Source: Minisyncoccota bacterium
GTDB taxonomy: Bacteria; Patescibacteriota; Minisyncoccia; Phycocordibacterales; UBA918
NCBI GenBank assembly: GCA_021129655.1
Contig: JAJOLC010000019.1
Location: 1-34,326, forward strand
Direction of reading: 5' to 3'
Length of the DNA: 34,326 nucleotides
Each line of letters starts with the position of its first letter. Positions within the stretch are counted from its first letter, which is position 1. Below are positions 4,363 to 19,361 of the stretch, in pieces. The notes beneath the pieces were generated by a model that worked only from the letters and a program-made list of their open reading frames with translations, did no database searches and had not been told where the DNA came from. Made by a program: the position numbers and the translations under genes.

Positions 4363-5862
4363 ATGCAACACATTGGAACTCGTATCACGGACGTTCGAGA
4401 AACGGCCGGAATGACTCAGGAAGCCTTAGCCAAGAAAATTGGCACTACTCAGAGCGCGATTGCTCGCATTGAATCTGGCAGGCAAAATGTCAGCGCTGAC
4501 ATGTTAAAGAAAATTGGTAAAGCTTTGGGCAAAAATCTTATCACCCTATCCCCCGGCACAGTCAATGTGTCTATCGAAGGCGGGAAGAAACTGTCTGGCG
4601 TAATCGAAACCAACACTTCTAAGAATGGTGCGGTTGGTCTACTGTGTGCTTCTTTGCTGAACAAGGGTAAAACCACTCTTCACAAAATGCCTCGTATCGA
4701 GGAGGTACACCGACTGGTTGAAGTATTGGAAAGTATTGATGTAAAAGTAGACTGGAAAGGTTCCACACTTACAATCACCCCTCCAAAGTCTTTTAGTCTA
4801 CAGAAAATAGATGTTGAAGCCGCTATGAAAACTCGCAGCATCGTGATGTTCATCGGACCTTTAATTCACCAGCTGAGATCATTCTCACTTCCTCAGTCTG
4901 GAGGATGTAAACTAGGCAGCCGCACTGTAAAGCCGCACTTTTATGCCCTTGAACATTTCGGAGTTGATATTCAAGCGACTGATGACGCCTTCGTTGTTAA
5001 AACTAGCATCAAACAACCCGAGGAAATCATTCTTTACGAATCAGGTGACACCGTGACTGAAAATGCTTTATTCGCAGCCGCTGGCAGCGCCGGAACAACT
5101 ATCATTAAATACGCTTCTTCAAACTACATGGTGCAGGAAGTTTGTACTTTCCTACAACTGTTTGGAGTAAAGATTGAAGGCTTTGGCACCACAACCTTAA
5201 CTGTAACCGGCGTTGGTTCAATTAACCAAGATATTGAATATACCTTGGCTGAGGACCCAACAGACACAATGTTCTTTCTAGCCGCTGCGGTTGTAACGAA
5301 TTCAAGTATCACTATTACTCGTTGTCCGATTGAATTCCTAGAACTAGAGCTACTAAAGCTTGAAAAAATGGGATTTAAGTACAAAAAATCAAAAGTTTAT
5401 TACGGTCATAACGGCGTAATTAAATTAGTAGACATCACCACCAGGCCGTCTAAGCTGGTTTCTCTGCATGAAAAAGTCTACGCTCGACCTTATCCAGGGC
5501 TAAATATAGATAACCTTCCTTTCTTCGCTGTTATAGCCACGCAAGCAGAAGGTCAGACTTTGATTCATGACTGGGTGTATGAAAAGCGAGCAATTTACTT
5601 TACAGAATTAGACAAATTAGGGGCCGAAACAGTACTAGCTGACCCGCACCGAATCTATATCAATGGTCCCACTAAACTTAAAGGCACTGAACTTATCTGC
5701 CCCCCAGCTCTCCGACCGGCCACTATTCTGCTCATTGCCATGCTTGGCGCATCTGGACACTCAGTTCTACGTAATATATACAGCATCAACCGTGGCTATG
5801 AAAAATTAGTAGAGCGACTGGAATCTTTGGGAGCTTCAATCTCATATATTGATGAATTCTAA
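4363..5862 (+). CDS. murA: UDP-N-acetylglucosamine 1-carboxyvinyltransferase with N-terminal XRE/Cro-C1 HTH domain
   Basis: The N-terminus IRxxR-like ITDVRETAGMTQEALAKKIGTTQSAIARIESGRQN is a classic HTH_3. MurA motifs: SKNG (K22 equivalent), GGCKLGSR (catalytic Cys loop), YPGLNIDN, INRGYEKLVERL. ATG 4363 is preferred to 4345 because 4345 lies within the promoter. Confidence 0.92.
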   Translation: MQHIGTRITDVRETAGMTQEALAKKIGTTQSAIARIESGRQNVSADMLKKIGKALGKNLITLSPGTVNVSIEGGKKLSGVIETNTSKNGAVGLLCASLLNKGKTTLHKMPRIEEVHRLVEVLESIDVKVDWKGSTLTITPPKSFSLQKIDVEAAMKTRSIVMFIGPLIHQLRSFSLPQSGGCKLGSRTVKPHFYALEHFGVDIQATDDAFVVKTSIKQPEEIILYESGDTVTENALFAAAGSAGTTIIKYASSNYMVQEVCTFLQLFGVKIEGFGTTTLTVTGVGSINQDIEYTLAEDPTDTMFFLAAAVVTNSSITITRCPIEFLELELLKLEKMGFKYKKSKVYYGHNGVIKLVDITTRPSKLVSLHEKVYARPYPGLNIDNLPFFAVIATQAEGQTLIHDWVYEKRAIYFTELDKLGAETVLADPHRIYINGPTKLKGTELICPPALRPATILLIAMLGASGHSVLRNIYSINRGYEKLVERLESLGASISYIDEF

Positions 5863-15128: not shown

Positions 15129-16689
15129 TCATGAGTCCAGTTTGTCGTCAGCCACTTCATAAACTGGGTCTTCATCCAAGTTCACTTCAACAATCTTCTC
15201 GGCGTTCTTCAGCAAACGCCTACAGTCATGACTTAAGTGATATAAGTGAAGCTTCTTCCCTGCTTGCAGATATTTGTCAGTCAGTGAATTAACAGCTTCA
15301 ATACCTGAATGATCTAGTATGCGAGCATCATTAAAATCAATAAACACCTCCTCTGGGTCATTAGCTACATTAAAGATACTTGAAAAGCTATGTATGGAAG
15401 CAAAGTACAGAGGACCGCTCAATTCGTAATGTTTACCACCGGTTTTATCTAAAAAGGCTTTAGCTGAAATACCCTGCGATTTTTTCCAACTAAAGACTAG
15501 TGCCGAAACAACAATACCCGCAATCACAGCTACTGCTAAATCAAACATAACAATAGTAGCGGAAACCAGAATAAGCACAAAAGCATCTGACCGGGGAATC
15601 TTCCTAATAATTCTCAAACTAGACCAAGCAAAGGTGCCAATTACCACCCTGAACATCACCCCCACTAGGGCCGCTAGAGGTATTTTCTCAATCAACGAAC
15701 CTGCAAATAGAATAAAACCAAACAAGGTCAGTCCAGCCATTATTCCAGCCCACCGGCCACGACCACCGGAATCCATATTGATCATACTTTGGCCCACCAT
15801 CGCACAGCCACCCATTCCTCCGAAGAAACCTGTCACGACATTAGCTACACCTTGAGCAGAACACTCAACATTACTTTGACCTCTAGTGTCGGTTTTCTCA
15901 TCAATCAGTGACATTATCATCAAAGACTCGACCAGCCCAATAAAGGCCAGAATAATTGCAAAGGGAAAGATTATTTTTAAGGTCTCAAAACCAAAAGTAA
16001 TGTCCGGAATTGAAAATGTTGGAAAACCAGCACTGTCTGACCACCATTCAACATATCGTAGACAGTGGGAGTATTTAAATCAAAGAAAACCACCAAAAAT
16101 GTGACCCGAGAGATGGAGGCCAGTGAAGCCGGCGCAGCTTTAGTAAATCGTGGCAAGAAAGCAATAACTGCCATTGTGAGTGCTATTAACCCACCCATTA
16201 GCATCAACTCCCCTGGCGGCAGCCATTCGCCATAAAACCAGCCAAAGTGACCGGCTGGTGTGAATGTTTGCAATTGCGGTATTTGAGCCAAGAAAATAAC
16301 AATTGCCAAACCGTTCACAAAACCCAGCATTGCAGGATGCGGAATAATACGAGAAAATTTACCCAATCTAAAGAAAGCAACGGTCAGCTGAATCATCCCC
16401 ATAAGTATTACAGTGGCAAACAAGTATTCGACTCCATGAGTACGAACTAGCTCAATCATCACTACTGCCAAGGCACCCGTGGCACCGGAAATCATCCCGG
16501 GTCGACCGCTCAAAACAGCCGCTATAAAGCTAACTATTGCAGCCGCATACAAACCCACAATCGGGTCCACTCCGGCCACAAAGGCAAAAGCAATCGCCTC
16601 TGGCACAAGAGCTAGAGCGACAGTAATCCAGACAATGTGTCTAAACGCCAATTGTTGGGAGATAAATATGAAAGTACTTTTTGTTGCAT
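15129..16689 (-). pseudogene. sulP: SulP-family anion transporter with STAS domain, broken by two frameshifts
   Basis: Reconstructed frame: ATG 16689 MQQKVLSYLSPNNWRLDTLSG, shift near 16629, ITVALALVPEAIAFA..GRPGMISGATGA...MLNGGQ, shift near 16034, SAGFPTFSIP..GLVESL..GGMGGCAMVGQS..STAS (GPLYFAS, DHSGIEA). Adding one base at each site gives about 520 aa. Confidence 0.85.
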
Positions 16690-16812: not shown

Positions 16813-17403
16813 TTACACCACCAGCACTCCTTGCCTAATCACCTCAAACCCTGAATCAGAGCACTCAATGACAGTAGAAGCCTCGTTCTCCAGCTCACCA
16901 CCGTCAATAGCCAAATCGATACCTTGTAAATCTTTCAAGACTTGTCTGCAACTGTCGCCAGGTTCTTGGCCACTAATATTTGCACTGGTTGTTGTAATTG
17001 GACAATCTAACTCCTTAACGATATTTAAAATCCCACTCTTATCTGGAATTCTTATTCCAATCTTATCTTCATTGCCAATATTCTTAGCCAGGTATATATC
17101 CTTAGCTGGAAGTATCAGAGTAAGTGGACCTGGTAAATACTTATCCATTAAACCTCTGGTATAATCATTAAAATACACATATTTAGCAGCCATTTCTATA
17201 TCGGAAACAACAATCGAAACTGCTTTTTGACTACTCACTTCCTTTATACTGCTAATCTTTTCTATAGCTGTTTCAGATCTTGCCAGAACACCTAAAGCGT
17301 ACTGGGTGTCAGTCGGATACAAAACTACCCCTCCATTTTTGAAGGTTTTAATTATTTCGTTTACATGTTCATAAATTTCTGAAATATGGATAATTTTTGT
17401 CAT
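16813..17403 (-). CDS. tsaC: L-threonylcarbamoyladenylate synthase (TsaC/YrdC/Sua5 N-domain)
   Basis: GGVVLYPTDTQYAL, PGPLTLIL, IGIRIPD, TTTSANISG, STVI, IRQG. Confidence 0.93.
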   Translation of the reverse strand: MTKIIHISEIYEHVNEIIKTFKNGGVVLYPTDTQYALGVLARSETAIEKISSIKEVSSQKAVSIVVSDIEMAAKYVYFNDYTRGLMDKYLPGPLTLILPAKDIYLAKNIGNEDKIGIRIPDKSGILNIVKELDCPITTTSANISGQEPGDSCRQVLKDLQGIDLAIDGGELENEASTVIECSDSGFEVIRQGVLVV

Positions 17404-17502
17404 AATATTTAGCTTTACTTCTATATTCCACTAGTCAATATACCACTTAAACAATATAAAAACCGTCTTCCCACCGAGATGAAAATTCGGTTTTTCTCCT
17501 AA

Positions 17503-17898
17503 TTAAAGGTTGTGATAATTTGAACGAACAAGACCTAGTAATGCATCAAGACCCTTACAATAAGCGGGCTCATCCGGTTTATCTAATCTTATAATTATCC
17601 AGAAATAAAGATGGAATACCTTCTGTCCTGCCGGACGCCCACAGTTGGAAGAGATGTTGTACGACGCATTAGCAATATCCGGAATCTCCTGCAGCATATC
17701 ATTAAAAGACGGCTGCCATGCAAGCAGAAGTTCTACAGAACTTCGACAGTGTTTCTTCGGGATAATCAGATAACTATTTGGTATTACAACGCCATCTTTT
17801 ACAGGCTGAATCAGAAAGGCTTTACCATTCTGACTCAGAATTTGATCTTGTCTGACTATTTCGTTTTATAAGCAAAAAGAACAATCTTTTATTTTTAC
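17503..17898 (-). pseudogene. HIT (histidine triad) family pseudogene
   Basis: After SD GGAGG the frame reads (GTA)KIKDCSFCL*NEIV...SYLIIPKKH...YNISSNCGRPAGQKVFHLYFWIIIR. In-frame TAA at 17866-17868, no canonical start codon, and HxHxH reduced to HLYFW. Confidence 0.75.
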
Positions 17899-18007
17899 AA
17901 TAACCTCCGTTGAAGTGAGTCGCAGTAGCGCTTTAATTAAGCTATATCATTCATTGTTTTTGTCAAATATTCCAACAACTTGAGAGTTTTTATTAGATTG
18001 AAACGAC

Positions 18008-18028
18008 AAAATCCACCTAAAGGTGGAT
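18008..18028 (-). terminator. Terminator downstream of the tRNA-Asn locus
   Basis: Minus strand ATCCACC-TTTA-GGTGGAT-TTT directly after the duplicated tRNA 3' end. Confidence 0.7.
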
Positions 18029-18036
18029 CTCTATCT

Positions 18037-18250
18037 CTGGCTCCGGCGGCAGGAGTCTCTCTTGCTACACAAGCAGTATACTTTTTGGACAGACAGGTTA
18101 GCCCTGCTCCCGATCTGACTCAAAAGCTTTTCGAGTCCTGACGAAAGTGACATTGAGTCACTTTCTCCGCCGCGGCATAGAAAAATCCCCTTTCGGGGAT
18201 TTTCCGATTCCTTCCGCCTACGGCGGACAAAAATTTGCGAGTTGTACTGA
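18037..18250 (-). repeat. tRNA-derived structured element: 18-bp direct repeat of the tRNA-Asn 3' end, an inverted T-arm copy and several hairpins
   Basis: CTGGCTCCGGCGGCAGGA at 18037-18054 equals 18251-18268. TTCGAGTCCTG (18130-18140) and CCGCCG (18167-18172) occur on the strand opposite to the tRNA. Hairpins at 18117-18137, 18143-18165, 18182-18203 and 18213-18227. Confidence 0.75.
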
Positions 18251-18251
18251 C

Positions 18252-18327
18252 TGGCTCCGGCGGCAGGACTCGAACCTGCGACAAATTGATTAACAGTCAA
18301 CTGCTCTACCAGCTGAGCTACGCCGGA
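18252..18327 (-). tRNA. tRNA-Asn(GTT)
   Basis: TCCGGCG TA GCTC AGCTGGTA GAGC A GTTGA CTGTTAA TCAAT TTGTC GCAGG TTCGAGT CCTGC CGCCGGA G CCA; a full 76-nt cloverleaf with encoded CCA. Confidence 0.97.
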
Positions 18328-18432
18328 ATGAATAGGATAATAAAAGTTTATTTTTATTAGTTATCTGAATGAACGGCGAAAGATTTTTCTTACGCCGGAA
18401 TATTCTTCTTACCTACTTTCGTAAGTGCGACT

Positions 18433-18460
18433 ATTGTACCTATTTTTATGATTATTTCAA
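18433..18460 (-). promoter_or_regulatory. Promoter of tRNA-Asn (TTGAAA-16-TACAAT)
   Basis: Near-consensus hexamers about 105 nt upstream of the mature tRNA 5' end. Confidence 0.55.
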
Positions 18461-18497
18461 CATGCTAAATATCAATTAGTAATATAGACTTAACAAT

Positions 18498-19361
18498 ATG
18501 CCAGAACTTCCAGAAGTCGAAACTGTGCGAATGCAACTTCAAAGAAAGGTAGTTGGGAAAACCGTTGCTGACGTTGAAGTTTTTCATGCCAAATCAGTCG
18601 ATAACAACAGTAATATCGAGGACCAGTTGCGAGGTAAAACTATTTCTGATGTAGACAGGATAGGAAAACTGATGATTTTTTCATTTGTAGATGAGGATGA
18701 CTTATTCCTACTGGCTCATCTAAAGATGACTGGCCAGTTTTTCTATATAGACAAAACTGGAAAAACTATCGGAGGAGGTCACTCCGCGACAGCTGGCGAT
18801 ACCGAGCTACCAACGAAACATACGCGTGTTACCTTTCATTTTACTGACCGTACTTCCCTACACTTTAACGACATGAGAATATTTGGTTATGTAAAAGTTG
18901 CTACAGCTAACGAAGTAAGAACTGCACGTGCCCGATTTGGACCAGAGCCTATCAGCCCTGACTTCGACTGCTCATGGTTCCATAAAAAGCTAAACAAAAG
19001 GAAAACTCCCATTAAGGCCGCTCTACTGGACCAAACCTTCATTGCCGGACTTGGCAATATTTACGTAGACGAGGCGCTGTGGCGAGCAAAGGTAAGACCA
19101 ACCAGACGATCGGACAAGTTAACCAAGAAAGAAGCGGCGGCGCTTTGTGCTGCCGCTGGTGACGTCATGAATGAATCTATAGCGGTGGGAGGAACCACCT
19201 TTCAACACTTCGTTGACACAGGTGGAGCTAACGGTAATTTTTCAGACTACTTGAAGGTTTTCGGACAACAAGGCAAAGCCTGTGAGCGTTGTGGCAAAAT
19301 CATAAAGAAAATACGCTGCGCTGGCAGAGGCACTCACTACTGCACAGGTTGTCAGAAGTAA
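18498..19361 (+). CDS. mutM: Formamidopyrimidine-DNA glycosylase/AP lyase
   Basis: MPELPEVET, RIGK, HLKMTG, FNDMRIFG, LLDQ.FIAGLGNIYVDEALW, C-terminal zinc finger CERC...RGTHYCTGCQ. Confidence 0.97.
   Translation: MPELPEVETVRMQLQRKVVGKTVADVEVFHAKSVDNNSNIEDQLRGKTISDVDRIGKLMIFSFVDEDDLFLLAHLKMTGQFFYIDKTGKTIGGGHSATAGDTELPTKHTRVTFHFTDRTSLHFNDMRIFGYVKVATANEVRTARARFGPEPISPDFDCSWFHKKLNKRKTPIKAALLDQTFIAGLGNIYVDEALWRAKVRPTRRSDKLTKKEAAALCAAAGDVMNESIAVGGTTFQHFVDTGGANGNFSDYLKVFGQQGKACERCGKIIKKIRCAGRGTHYCTGCQK

Follow-up and report, generated by a model that had tools for sequence, protein, structure and literature searches.

The stretch of DNA analyzed here (the window), a contig of 34,326 nucleotides from a Minisyncoccota bacterium, carries on its minus strand a gene for tRNA-Asn(GTT) that is directly followed by a short, gene-less element spanning positions 18037 to 18251. 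The element includes a hairpin, an antisense copy of the 3' part of the tRNA that is split by another hairpin, additional hairpins and, at the distal end, a second sense copy of the tRNA 3' end that is identical at 18 of 18 positions (Table 1); this is the layout that had been proposed in the original prediction, made from the sequence of the window. Such elements apparently represent a widespread, undescribed family of small, gene-less DNA modules that reside behind the tRNA genes of ultra-small bacteria; the literature, to the extent that it is represented in listings and abstracts, contains no description of them.

Table 1. Features of the tRNA-Asn gene and the adjacent element in the window (R2, covariance model of the antisense-hairpin core g1-h1-g2)
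Feature	Position	Strand	Basis
Promoter-like site TTGAAA-16-TACAAT, 10/12	18433-18460	minus	consensus scan only
tRNA-Asn(GTT), CCA encoded	18252-18327	minus	ARAGORN; Rfam tRNA, 72 bits
Proximal 'A' segment: T-loop, T-stem 3' strand, acceptor 3' strand, discriminator, CCA	18252-18274	minus	sequence reading; repeats D1, I1
Spacer with small hairpin UCCGCC-GUA-GGCGGA (18213-18227)	18204-18251	minus	sequence reading, fold
T1, first terminator-like hairpin, AAAAUCCCC-GAAA-GGGGAUUUU	18182-18203	minus	sequence reading, fold; not called by strict terminator scan
g1, left antisense arm, 10-nt slot	18167-18176	minus	sequence reading; alignment with relatives
h1, 9-bp hairpin GAAAGUGAC-UCAAU-GUCACUUUC, conserved flanks A...GU	18143-18165	minus	repeat I9, fold, R2 44.8 bits
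g2, right antisense arm, CAGGACUCGAA (= CAGGACTCGAA)	18130-18140	minus	inverted repeat I1; BLAST 11/11
h2, module hairpin, type 'AAGCUUUUGAGUCAGAU...'	18081-18129	minus	BLAST, sequence reading
h3, module hairpin, GUAUAC in front	18060-18074	minus	fold, sequence reading
Distal sense copy of tRNA 3' end, UCCUGCCGCCGGAGCCAG	18037-18054	minus	direct repeat D1; BLAST 18/18 vs 18251-18268
T2, second terminator-like hairpin AUCCACC-UUUA-GGUGGAU + U-run	18008-18028	minus	sequence reading, fold; not called by strict scan

The element contains both a sense and an antisense copy of the proximal 'A' segment of the tRNA gene. The antisense copy, in which g1 and g2 are separated by h1, was originally described as an exact complement of the tRNA; g2 is the exact complement of tRNA UUCGAGUCCUG (T-loop and 3' strand of the T-stem). 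The acceptor part has partly decayed: within g1, complementarity to the acceptor 3' strand (CCGCCG in the tRNA) is retained only by CGGCGG (18167-18172), 6 of the 10 nucleotides found in better-preserved relatives. Taken alone, the g2 11-mer is not significant genome-wide (BLAST E = 33), and its significance derives from its position and from family membership. The predicted fold is closed by the pairing of g1 and g2 with the sense copy under both RNA and DNA parameters, and is more stable than the folds of shuffled sequences, with z = -5.75 for 252 nt as RNA (a second RNA estimate is z = -7.18) and z = -3.3 on either strand for 140 nt as DNA. The small hairpin in the spacer has no counterpart in most family members. 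The segment 17661-18283 is reproduced without differences by public-run contigs produced with an independent assembler (run X1 records 1-2), and this run may derive from the source sample.

In a search of the bacterium's own genome (722 kb, or 0.72 Mb, in 64 contigs, 97% complete, with 28 tRNA genes found), pieces of the element on other contigs were in every case located just downstream of a tRNA gene. The check proposed in the original prediction gave a positive result, with copies that have co-varying antisense parts being found behind other tRNA genes: the same layout is present behind 12 of the 28, those for Asn, Ser-UGA, Ser-GCU, Lys, Met, Leu-CAA, Leu-GAG, Trp, Tyr, Gly, His and Ala, with the parts in the order tRNA, T1, g1, h1, g2, h2, h3, sense copy and T2, and with conserved flanks of h1 (A-GAAAG...CTTTC-GT). 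Both the antisense and the sense arms fit the local tRNA in all 12 cases, and the tRNA genes that lack an element show no partial intermediates. In a pooled set of 99 elements, drawn from the own genome, its relatives and a pattern scan, g1 matches its own tRNA with at most 2 mismatches of 10 in 57 elements, compared with 44 of the 1320 pairings with other tRNAs; for the sense copy, at most 2 mismatches of 14 are found in 65 of the 99 elements, compared with 6 of 1396 pairings. The element is clearly neither single-copy nor non-conserved: the family, which is found behind at least 16 tRNA specificities, is widespread, and its arms co-vary with the host tRNA.

Several additional observations pertain to the tRNA genes and hairpins of this genome. 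Most of its tRNA genes end with discriminator-C-A, directly followed by a long palindromic terminator with A/T arms, and the full CCA is encoded in only 6 of the 28. The loops of h2 often read GCGAAGC or GCGTAGCGAA (for example, C9:16330-16345 in the own genome, and L041, L061 and L063 elsewhere); as DNA, GCGAAGC forms a mini-hairpin of unusual stability. Approximately 350 nt downstream of tRNA-Ser(GCU) and its element lies a tRNA-Ser call (C32:186-273) whose anticodon, ACT, is unusual, and tRNA-Thr(UGU) is followed by a degenerate partial copy of itself (C8:6360-6440). Several contigs, C13 and C12 among them, end inside elements; given this and the detection of only 28 tRNA genes in 64 contigs, the repeats probably break the assembly.

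The R2 model matches 97 of the 101 genomes of the genus (0 to 22 matches per genome, about 720 in all) and, in an order-level set comprising roughly one genome per genus, 87 of the 121 genomes, in 84 of 116 genera. An exact pattern scan identified at least 121 loci. Among the matches listed, most come from Saccharibacteria and Paceibacterota/Parcubacteria, the same modules recur across classes of Patescibacteria, and a few records carry labels that could not be checked, namely, Betaproteobacteria, Acidimicrobiales, Verrucomicrobiia or Elusimicrobiaceae. Among the 121 evaluable matches listed, 60 are located at most 130 nt behind a same-strand tRNA gene, 16 lie behind a sense copy (tandem elements), 8 have a tRNA gene further upstream and 37 have neither, the latter including evident chance matches in coding DNA and loci with short flanks. 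A viral origin was considered and rejected, with 0 matches to the pattern in 2.9 million viral contigs and no phage match either.

The duplicated segment, 15-22 nt in length, starts inside the T-loop, with the junction in TTCGA, where identity back from C61 extends for 1 to 7 nt and the right end of the element itself mimics CGAAT; it usually ends at C74 or at the called tRNA end (45 of 63 elements extend 0-1 nt past it). The second sense copy accordingly extends from the T-loop up to C74, with another terminator behind it. In the antisense arm, g1 is complementary to tRNA positions ~65-74 (from the complement of C74 onward) and g2 to positions 54-64 (up to the complement of T54); therefore, the arm covers exactly the duplicated segment. 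In 29 of 87 elements, a direct repeat that is perfect over 14 nt is accompanied by an arm with at least 2 mismatches of 14, the reverse is found in 9 of 87, and the decay of the two shows no positive correlation (rho = -0.17), which indicates that the arm did not arise as a side product when the repeat was copied. At sites that distinguish the two sense copies, the arm fits the tRNA in 80 cases and the distal copy in 6, a count that is biased toward the tRNA because the match to the tRNA was used to locate the arm. The region upstream of the gene was also seen to contain copies of the tRNA-Asn 5' end, of 11 nt in the window (18391-18401 vs 18319-18329) and of 22-70 nt in the relatives G002 and G032 (L010 1284-1353; L011 1127-1148 and 1314-1342), suggesting a mirror phenomenon on the 5' side of the tRNA.

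The elements appear to turn over at orthologous sites. In the genome collections, which contain one genome per species, some orthologs of tRNA-Asn are empty (e.g., L014, L016, L019 and L022-24), others carry a single element, and still others carry tandem elements (L020, L021 and L026). Likewise, among metagenome contigs in which tRNA-Asn lies next to an fpg ortholog, none, one or two elements, or an extra cassette of ~520 nt, are present; the best relatives in this set are 76-77% identical in Fpg, and identical pairs have identical content. Between species of the genus, the sequences on either side of tRNA-Asn cannot be aligned. In G002, an identical tRNA-Asn is followed by near-identical h1 and g2 but by a different h2/h3 module and a different T1, and the h1 variant and h2 type of the window recur behind other tRNAs of the own genome and behind tRNA-Tyr elsewhere, indicating that modules are exchanged, or spread, independently of the arms; generally, hairpin modules are common to different tRNAs and different genomes. 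Thus, as judged by comparison between species, sites are gained, lost, stacked and re-assorted.

The ~520-nt cassette (L224 and L248) directly follows tRNA-Asn, being inserted between the tRNA and an ordinary element, and contains a ribosome-binding site, an open reading frame (ORF) of 133 amino acids (L224:423-824, minus strand) without a match in Pfam, a terminator and a divergent copy of the tRNA end. Coding cargo is thus also collected at these tRNA ends, albeit rarely (L224). As a separate feature of the same gene, the tRNA-Asn of several relatives is interrupted in the anticodon loop by a group I intron of 258-277 nt (L034 1234-1492 in G027, Rfam Intron_gpI, 81.9 bits; split genes are also found in G022, G011, G019 and G035 and in L177, L186, L188 and L244), and some of these intron-split genes are wrongly labelled tRNA-Thr by ARAGORN.

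The composition of the stems suggests on which nucleic acid the element acts. In the stems of h1, h2 and h3, 1096 pairs are Watson-Crick, 8 are G:T (0.7%), 3 are A:C and 31 are other combinations, compared with 83 G:T of 1548 pairs (5.4%) vs 10 A:C in the acceptor and T stems of 129 tRNAs from the same data. All 252 cells of h1 are Watson-Crick, with 67 double-sided and 0 one-sided changes, among rows that were pre-selected for at least 8 of 9 pairs with G:T allowed. As far as can be judged from pairing patterns, these near-pure Watson-Crick stems point to DNA hairpins or palindromes rather than to a selected RNA fold. The mismatches between the arm and the tRNA (37 G:T, 31 A:C and 78 other) show no wobble bias, and therefore this particular comparison is silent on the acting strand.

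Considering all these observations, we put at about even the chances that positions 18037-18251 represent a copy, decayed to some degree, of a gene-less insertion cassette that has specificity for the 3' end of a single tRNA gene and acts as DNA. Of the three readings offered originally, this corresponds to the tRNA-targeting non-autonomous element, which is favored by the 12 tRNA genes with co-varying arms, the wide spread of the family and the existence of empty, filled and tandem sites; the other two, a tRNA-mimic non-coding RNA and a pre-tRNA maturation switch, found no such backing (see below). The unit would enter at the T-loop/3' end of the cognate tRNA gene, so that the tRNA would stay intact, with a terminator behind it, and its 3' part would be present twice. 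The split arm would be of use to the element rather than to the cell. In a single DNA strand, it could pair either with the sense copy or with the sense strand of the tRNA gene, forming a duplex of ~21 bp, both ends of which would coincide with the ends of the duplicated segment, and this duplex could either present a double-stranded mimic of the target or guide cuts. In either case, the cassette probably acts via a folded single strand that mimics, or pairs with, the target. The enzyme would be supplied in trans, the candidates in the own genome being a RAYT-like Y1 HUH protein (C2:6645-7319) and the single tyrosine recombinase (contig C27, around 5109-5627).

Several observations weigh against the insertion cassette. 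The duplication also covers T1 in 5 of 63 elements, and a hairpin that is 96% identical to T1 of the window stands after the element in G002 but before it in the window, so that T1 of the window matches T2 of G002; one and the same insertion geometry cannot account for both findings. Complementarity of the antisense arms is only ~80%, indicating that tight pairing is not maintained, and the cargo cassette of L224 ends in a copy of the tRNA end that does not fit the resident tRNA. The tRNA-sense (top) strand folds better as RNA than the bottom strand in 56 of 66 elements, which would fit a transcript, although this preference is explained by purine-rich loops. Furthermore, no excised form, circle junction or within-species pair of empty and filled sites was seen among the genomes (one per species) and the fragmentary contigs that were searched, and mobility accordingly rests on patterns between species. 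The public contigs over the locus are fragmentary unitigs that break at repeats; a 105-nt skipping joint in one contig of run X3, with a 22-nt side, is too weak to be taken as an excision product.

The remaining difficulty is that no enzyme is tied to the element. The genes around it encode housekeeping proteins (Fpg, FIST, a histidine kinase, Sua5 and a split SulP), and the only tyrosine recombinase of the genome is encoded on another contig, with no phage-type integrase in the genome, in accord with the original remark that no integrase is present at the locus. Nearly every genome of the genus encodes exactly one tyrosine recombinase, including 4 genomes without elements. Mobilization by a reverse transcriptase, a serine recombinase, IS110 or TnpB was considered and rejected, these families not being found in the 97%-complete own genome. 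Among the neighbors, the SulP-family sulfate permease is split into two ORFs on the minus strand (15129-15923 and 15977-16651), corresponding to the N-terminal part and to the C-terminal part with the STAS domain, a possible frameshift or pseudogene.

The other enzyme candidate invites a more specific form of the same interpretation, namely, a REPIN/PATE-like element that is moved as single-stranded DNA by the Y1 HUH transposase (PATE, palindrome-associated transposable element); we view this as a minority possibility. The enzyme would bind h1 or h3, and the arms, by analogy with the 4-nt guides of IS200/IS605, would pair with the tRNA sense strand over ~21 nt and place the cut in the T-loop. 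The candidate is a single-copy gene on the minus strand, outside the window, encoding 224 amino acids with the HUH and Y motifs; it scores 33.9 bits against Pfam Y1_Tnp (cut-off 23), and its best NCBIfam match is the REP-associated tyrosine transposase (REP_Tyr_transpos), at 37.4 bits, which is, however, below the cut-off of 80. Within the genus, genomes with Y1 have on average 8.8 R2 matches compared with 4.2 in those without (Mann-Whitney p = 1e-6, uncorrected for kinship), all 18 genomes with at least 12 matches have Y1, and all 4 genomes with zero matches lack it. The strictly Watson-Crick hairpins, the fixed orientation of the element and the location of the arms directly at the foot of h1 are also compatible with such a mechanism.

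Other findings speak against the involvement of Y1, and several of them count against the cassette as well. The high-count, Y1-rich genomes of the genus are kin; at the order level, the association is weak (4.85 vs 2.94, p = 0.058; odds ratio for presence 1.45, p = 0.41), with 33 of the 87 element-bearing genomes lacking any Y1 match; and near-complete genomes without a Y1 match hold up to 11 elements (G006 and G010). The Y1 gene is flanked by hairpins of its own, CCACAGG-N5-CCTGTGG (C2:6607 and C2:7371), which are unlike those of the element: of the 4 copies in the genome, a third lies inside the Y1 ORF (C2:6757) and the fourth at C18:1422, and none is present in the window or in the tRNA elements. 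Finally, IS200/IS605 elements make no target duplication. The link to Y1, clear within the genus and weak across the order, is therefore a lead rather than a finding. A Y1 gene that adjoins an element in G116 was examined as an autonomous form and rejected, being a separate gene with flanking repeats of its own.

A bolder construction, to which we would give about one chance in five, is that insertion is sequence-programmable. The split arm g1-h1-g2 would pair with ~21 nt of the tRNA sense strand and the ends of the heteroduplex would set the two cuts, whereby the paired segment, from the T-loop to C74, would be duplicated; rewriting of the arm would re-aim the cassette. Such DNA- (or RNA-) guided insertion would employ a small host-encoded enzyme and would be independent of CRISPR, TnpB and IS110 bridge RNAs.

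Alternatively, the element could be a by-product of replication errors, in which switching of the template at two palindromes, one being the terminator hairpin and the other TTCGAA of the T-loop, produces a sense-antisense-sense triplication and gene conversion subsequently spreads the modules. The direct-inverted-direct arrangement with junctions at palindromes is what this scenario calls for; tRNA, T1 and the antisense copy make up one long interrupted palindrome (e.g., L010), the mismatches of the arm lack a wobble bias, and the near-universal T-loop sequence that flanks the modules could seed conversion. Against these points stand the imperfect arms found next to perfect direct repeats and the uncorrelated decay of the two, the interruption of the antisense copy by a conserved h1 at the same position in hundreds of loci, the lack of partial intermediates at tRNA genes without an element, and the recurrence of the same modules across classes of Patescibacteria. 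On balance, we consider this explanation improbable.

We are similarly skeptical of a functional structured RNA, produced by read-through or from its own start, that would be an NCCA-ended mimic of the acceptor/T-arm, a trailer involved in the folding or 3' processing of the pre-tRNA, or a guide RNA in which the split arm holds the tRNA's 3' half as an H/ACA pocket holds its target. Such a role would be compatible with the very stable predicted fold, with its closing helix formed by the acceptor 3' strand and the discriminator, with the fixed orientation relative to the tRNA and the better folding of the top strand, and with the persistence of the elements in streamlined genomes. However, G:U pairs are nearly absent from the stems, pairing involves the discriminator and C74, which is not the case in tRNA mimics, and the elements are patchy at orthologous sites, with tandem and decayed copies. 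Moreover, a terminator-like hairpin normally stands in front of the element, and a consensus scan of the window detected no promoter-like site between tRNA-Asn and the element, with both sites found being upstream of the tRNA (the nearer one is listed in Table 1). The designation of T1 and T2 as terminators comes from reading the sequence, given that a strict scan called none in the element stretch; of the terminator claimed originally, the hairpin with a T-run is indeed present at 18008-18028, and the strict call is not. In Rfam 15, the only match in 17000-19000 that passes is to the tRNA, all others being far below the gathering threshold (E >= 0.27). On these grounds, neither the tRNA-mimic RNA nor the maturation switch is supported.

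Least probable is an ordinary attL/attR scar, that is, a larger tyrosine-integrase island in tRNA-Asn that was deleted down to ~200 bp (a minimal cis-mobilizable element, CIME): the direct repeat of the tRNA 3' part starts in the T-loop, reportedly, following Williams in 2002, the mark of the classical T-loop class of att sites, and larger cargo inserts with tRNA-end repeats are found at the same gene in relatives (L224 and L241), but the ~200-bp content is itself a conserved family behind many tRNA specificities, it includes an internal antisense copy, which, as rightly remarked originally, a plain att scar does not have, the genome has no phage-type integrase, almost all genomes of the genus, whether or not they contain elements, have only one tyrosine recombinase, and neither viral contigs nor phages match the pattern.

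If the cassettes are mobile, they exemplify a novel lifestyle of selfish DNA in bacterial genomes of the smallest size: they land on an essential, universally conserved gene, repair it with a 3' end and a terminator of their own, and recognize it by means of the mirror copy that they contain. This is relevant to the question of how tRNA genes acquired their role as universal integration sites. If the arm guides the cuts, the cassettes would embody a compact programmable integration mechanism. Under the conservative reading, too, they make up a large, uncatalogued class of repeats that mimic tRNA fragments and can mislead predictors of tRNAs, pseudogenes and islands. The assembly and annotation of Patescibacteria genomes are also affected, with repeats breaking contigs at tRNA genes.

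Integrative elements in tRNA genes and their gene-less derivatives have been described, including an archaeal case (PMC3293823). Similar to such elements and CIMEs, the cassette is inserted at the 3' part of a tRNA gene that remains intact, is flanked by a direct repeat from the T-loop onward (18 of 18 nt) and can be stacked in tandem. In contrast to them, it is only ~150-250 bp long and without genes, it contains an internal, split antisense copy of the target, and its hairpin scaffold is common to at least 16 specificities; neither a cognate integrase within or near the element nor one dedicated to it in the genome was identified. Rickettsia palindromic elements and MITE-like repeats resemble the cassettes in being small, structured and non-coding, in populating reduced genomes and in that they can lie in or beside RNA genes, but have fixed ends, lack target-specific arms and are not restricted to tRNA 3' ends.

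With the REPIN/RAYT systems, the family shares gene-less, inverted-repeat hairpins in many copies, a single-copy Y1 HUH gene with flanking inverted hairpins in the genome, and an increase in element number with the presence of Y1 within the genus. The differences are that the inverted arms are copies of the local target rather than a fixed REP, that the elements are tied to tRNA 3' ends instead of being dispersed, and that the hairpins flanking the RAYT-like gene are not those of the repeats, with the association fading at the order level. The PATEs of IS200/IS605 are likewise hairpin-rich, strand-specific and gene-less, with sequence at the foot of a hairpin that is complementary to the insertion site and insertion beside a short conserved motif (here, TTCGA of the T-loop). 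Unlike them, the cassette shows complementarity of the Watson-Crick type over ~21 nt, rather than mixed pairing over 4 nt, goes along with a target duplication of 15-22 nt, carries a terminator of its own, and is linked to neither TnpA nor TnpB.

The folded attP of the CTX phage and of IMEX elements and the attC sites of integrons consist of inverted arms and a spacer that fold, in one strand, into a target-like duplex. The two inverted arms of the cassette, too, are predicted to form a duplex that replicates the target, and it resembles these sites in the integrated order of target copy, inverted arm, spacer and target copy and in the extrahelical feature that interrupts one arm (here, h1). 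It differs in that the target is a tRNA gene rather than dif or attI, that no Xer- or IntI-type binding motif was identified in it (GTTCGAA of the T-loop departs from the integron core GTTRRRY at the fourth base), and that the arms are re-fitted to many targets in a unit of a few hundred bases with neither a phage genome nor a cassette ORF. The cassette therefore does not fit the IS200/IS605, integrase-borne island or REPIN classes, and probably not those of CTX attP and attC; in the account with the best support, it would work in the manner of folded-strand sites, such as the CTX attP and attC, or by the guide-hairpin logic of IS200/IS605.

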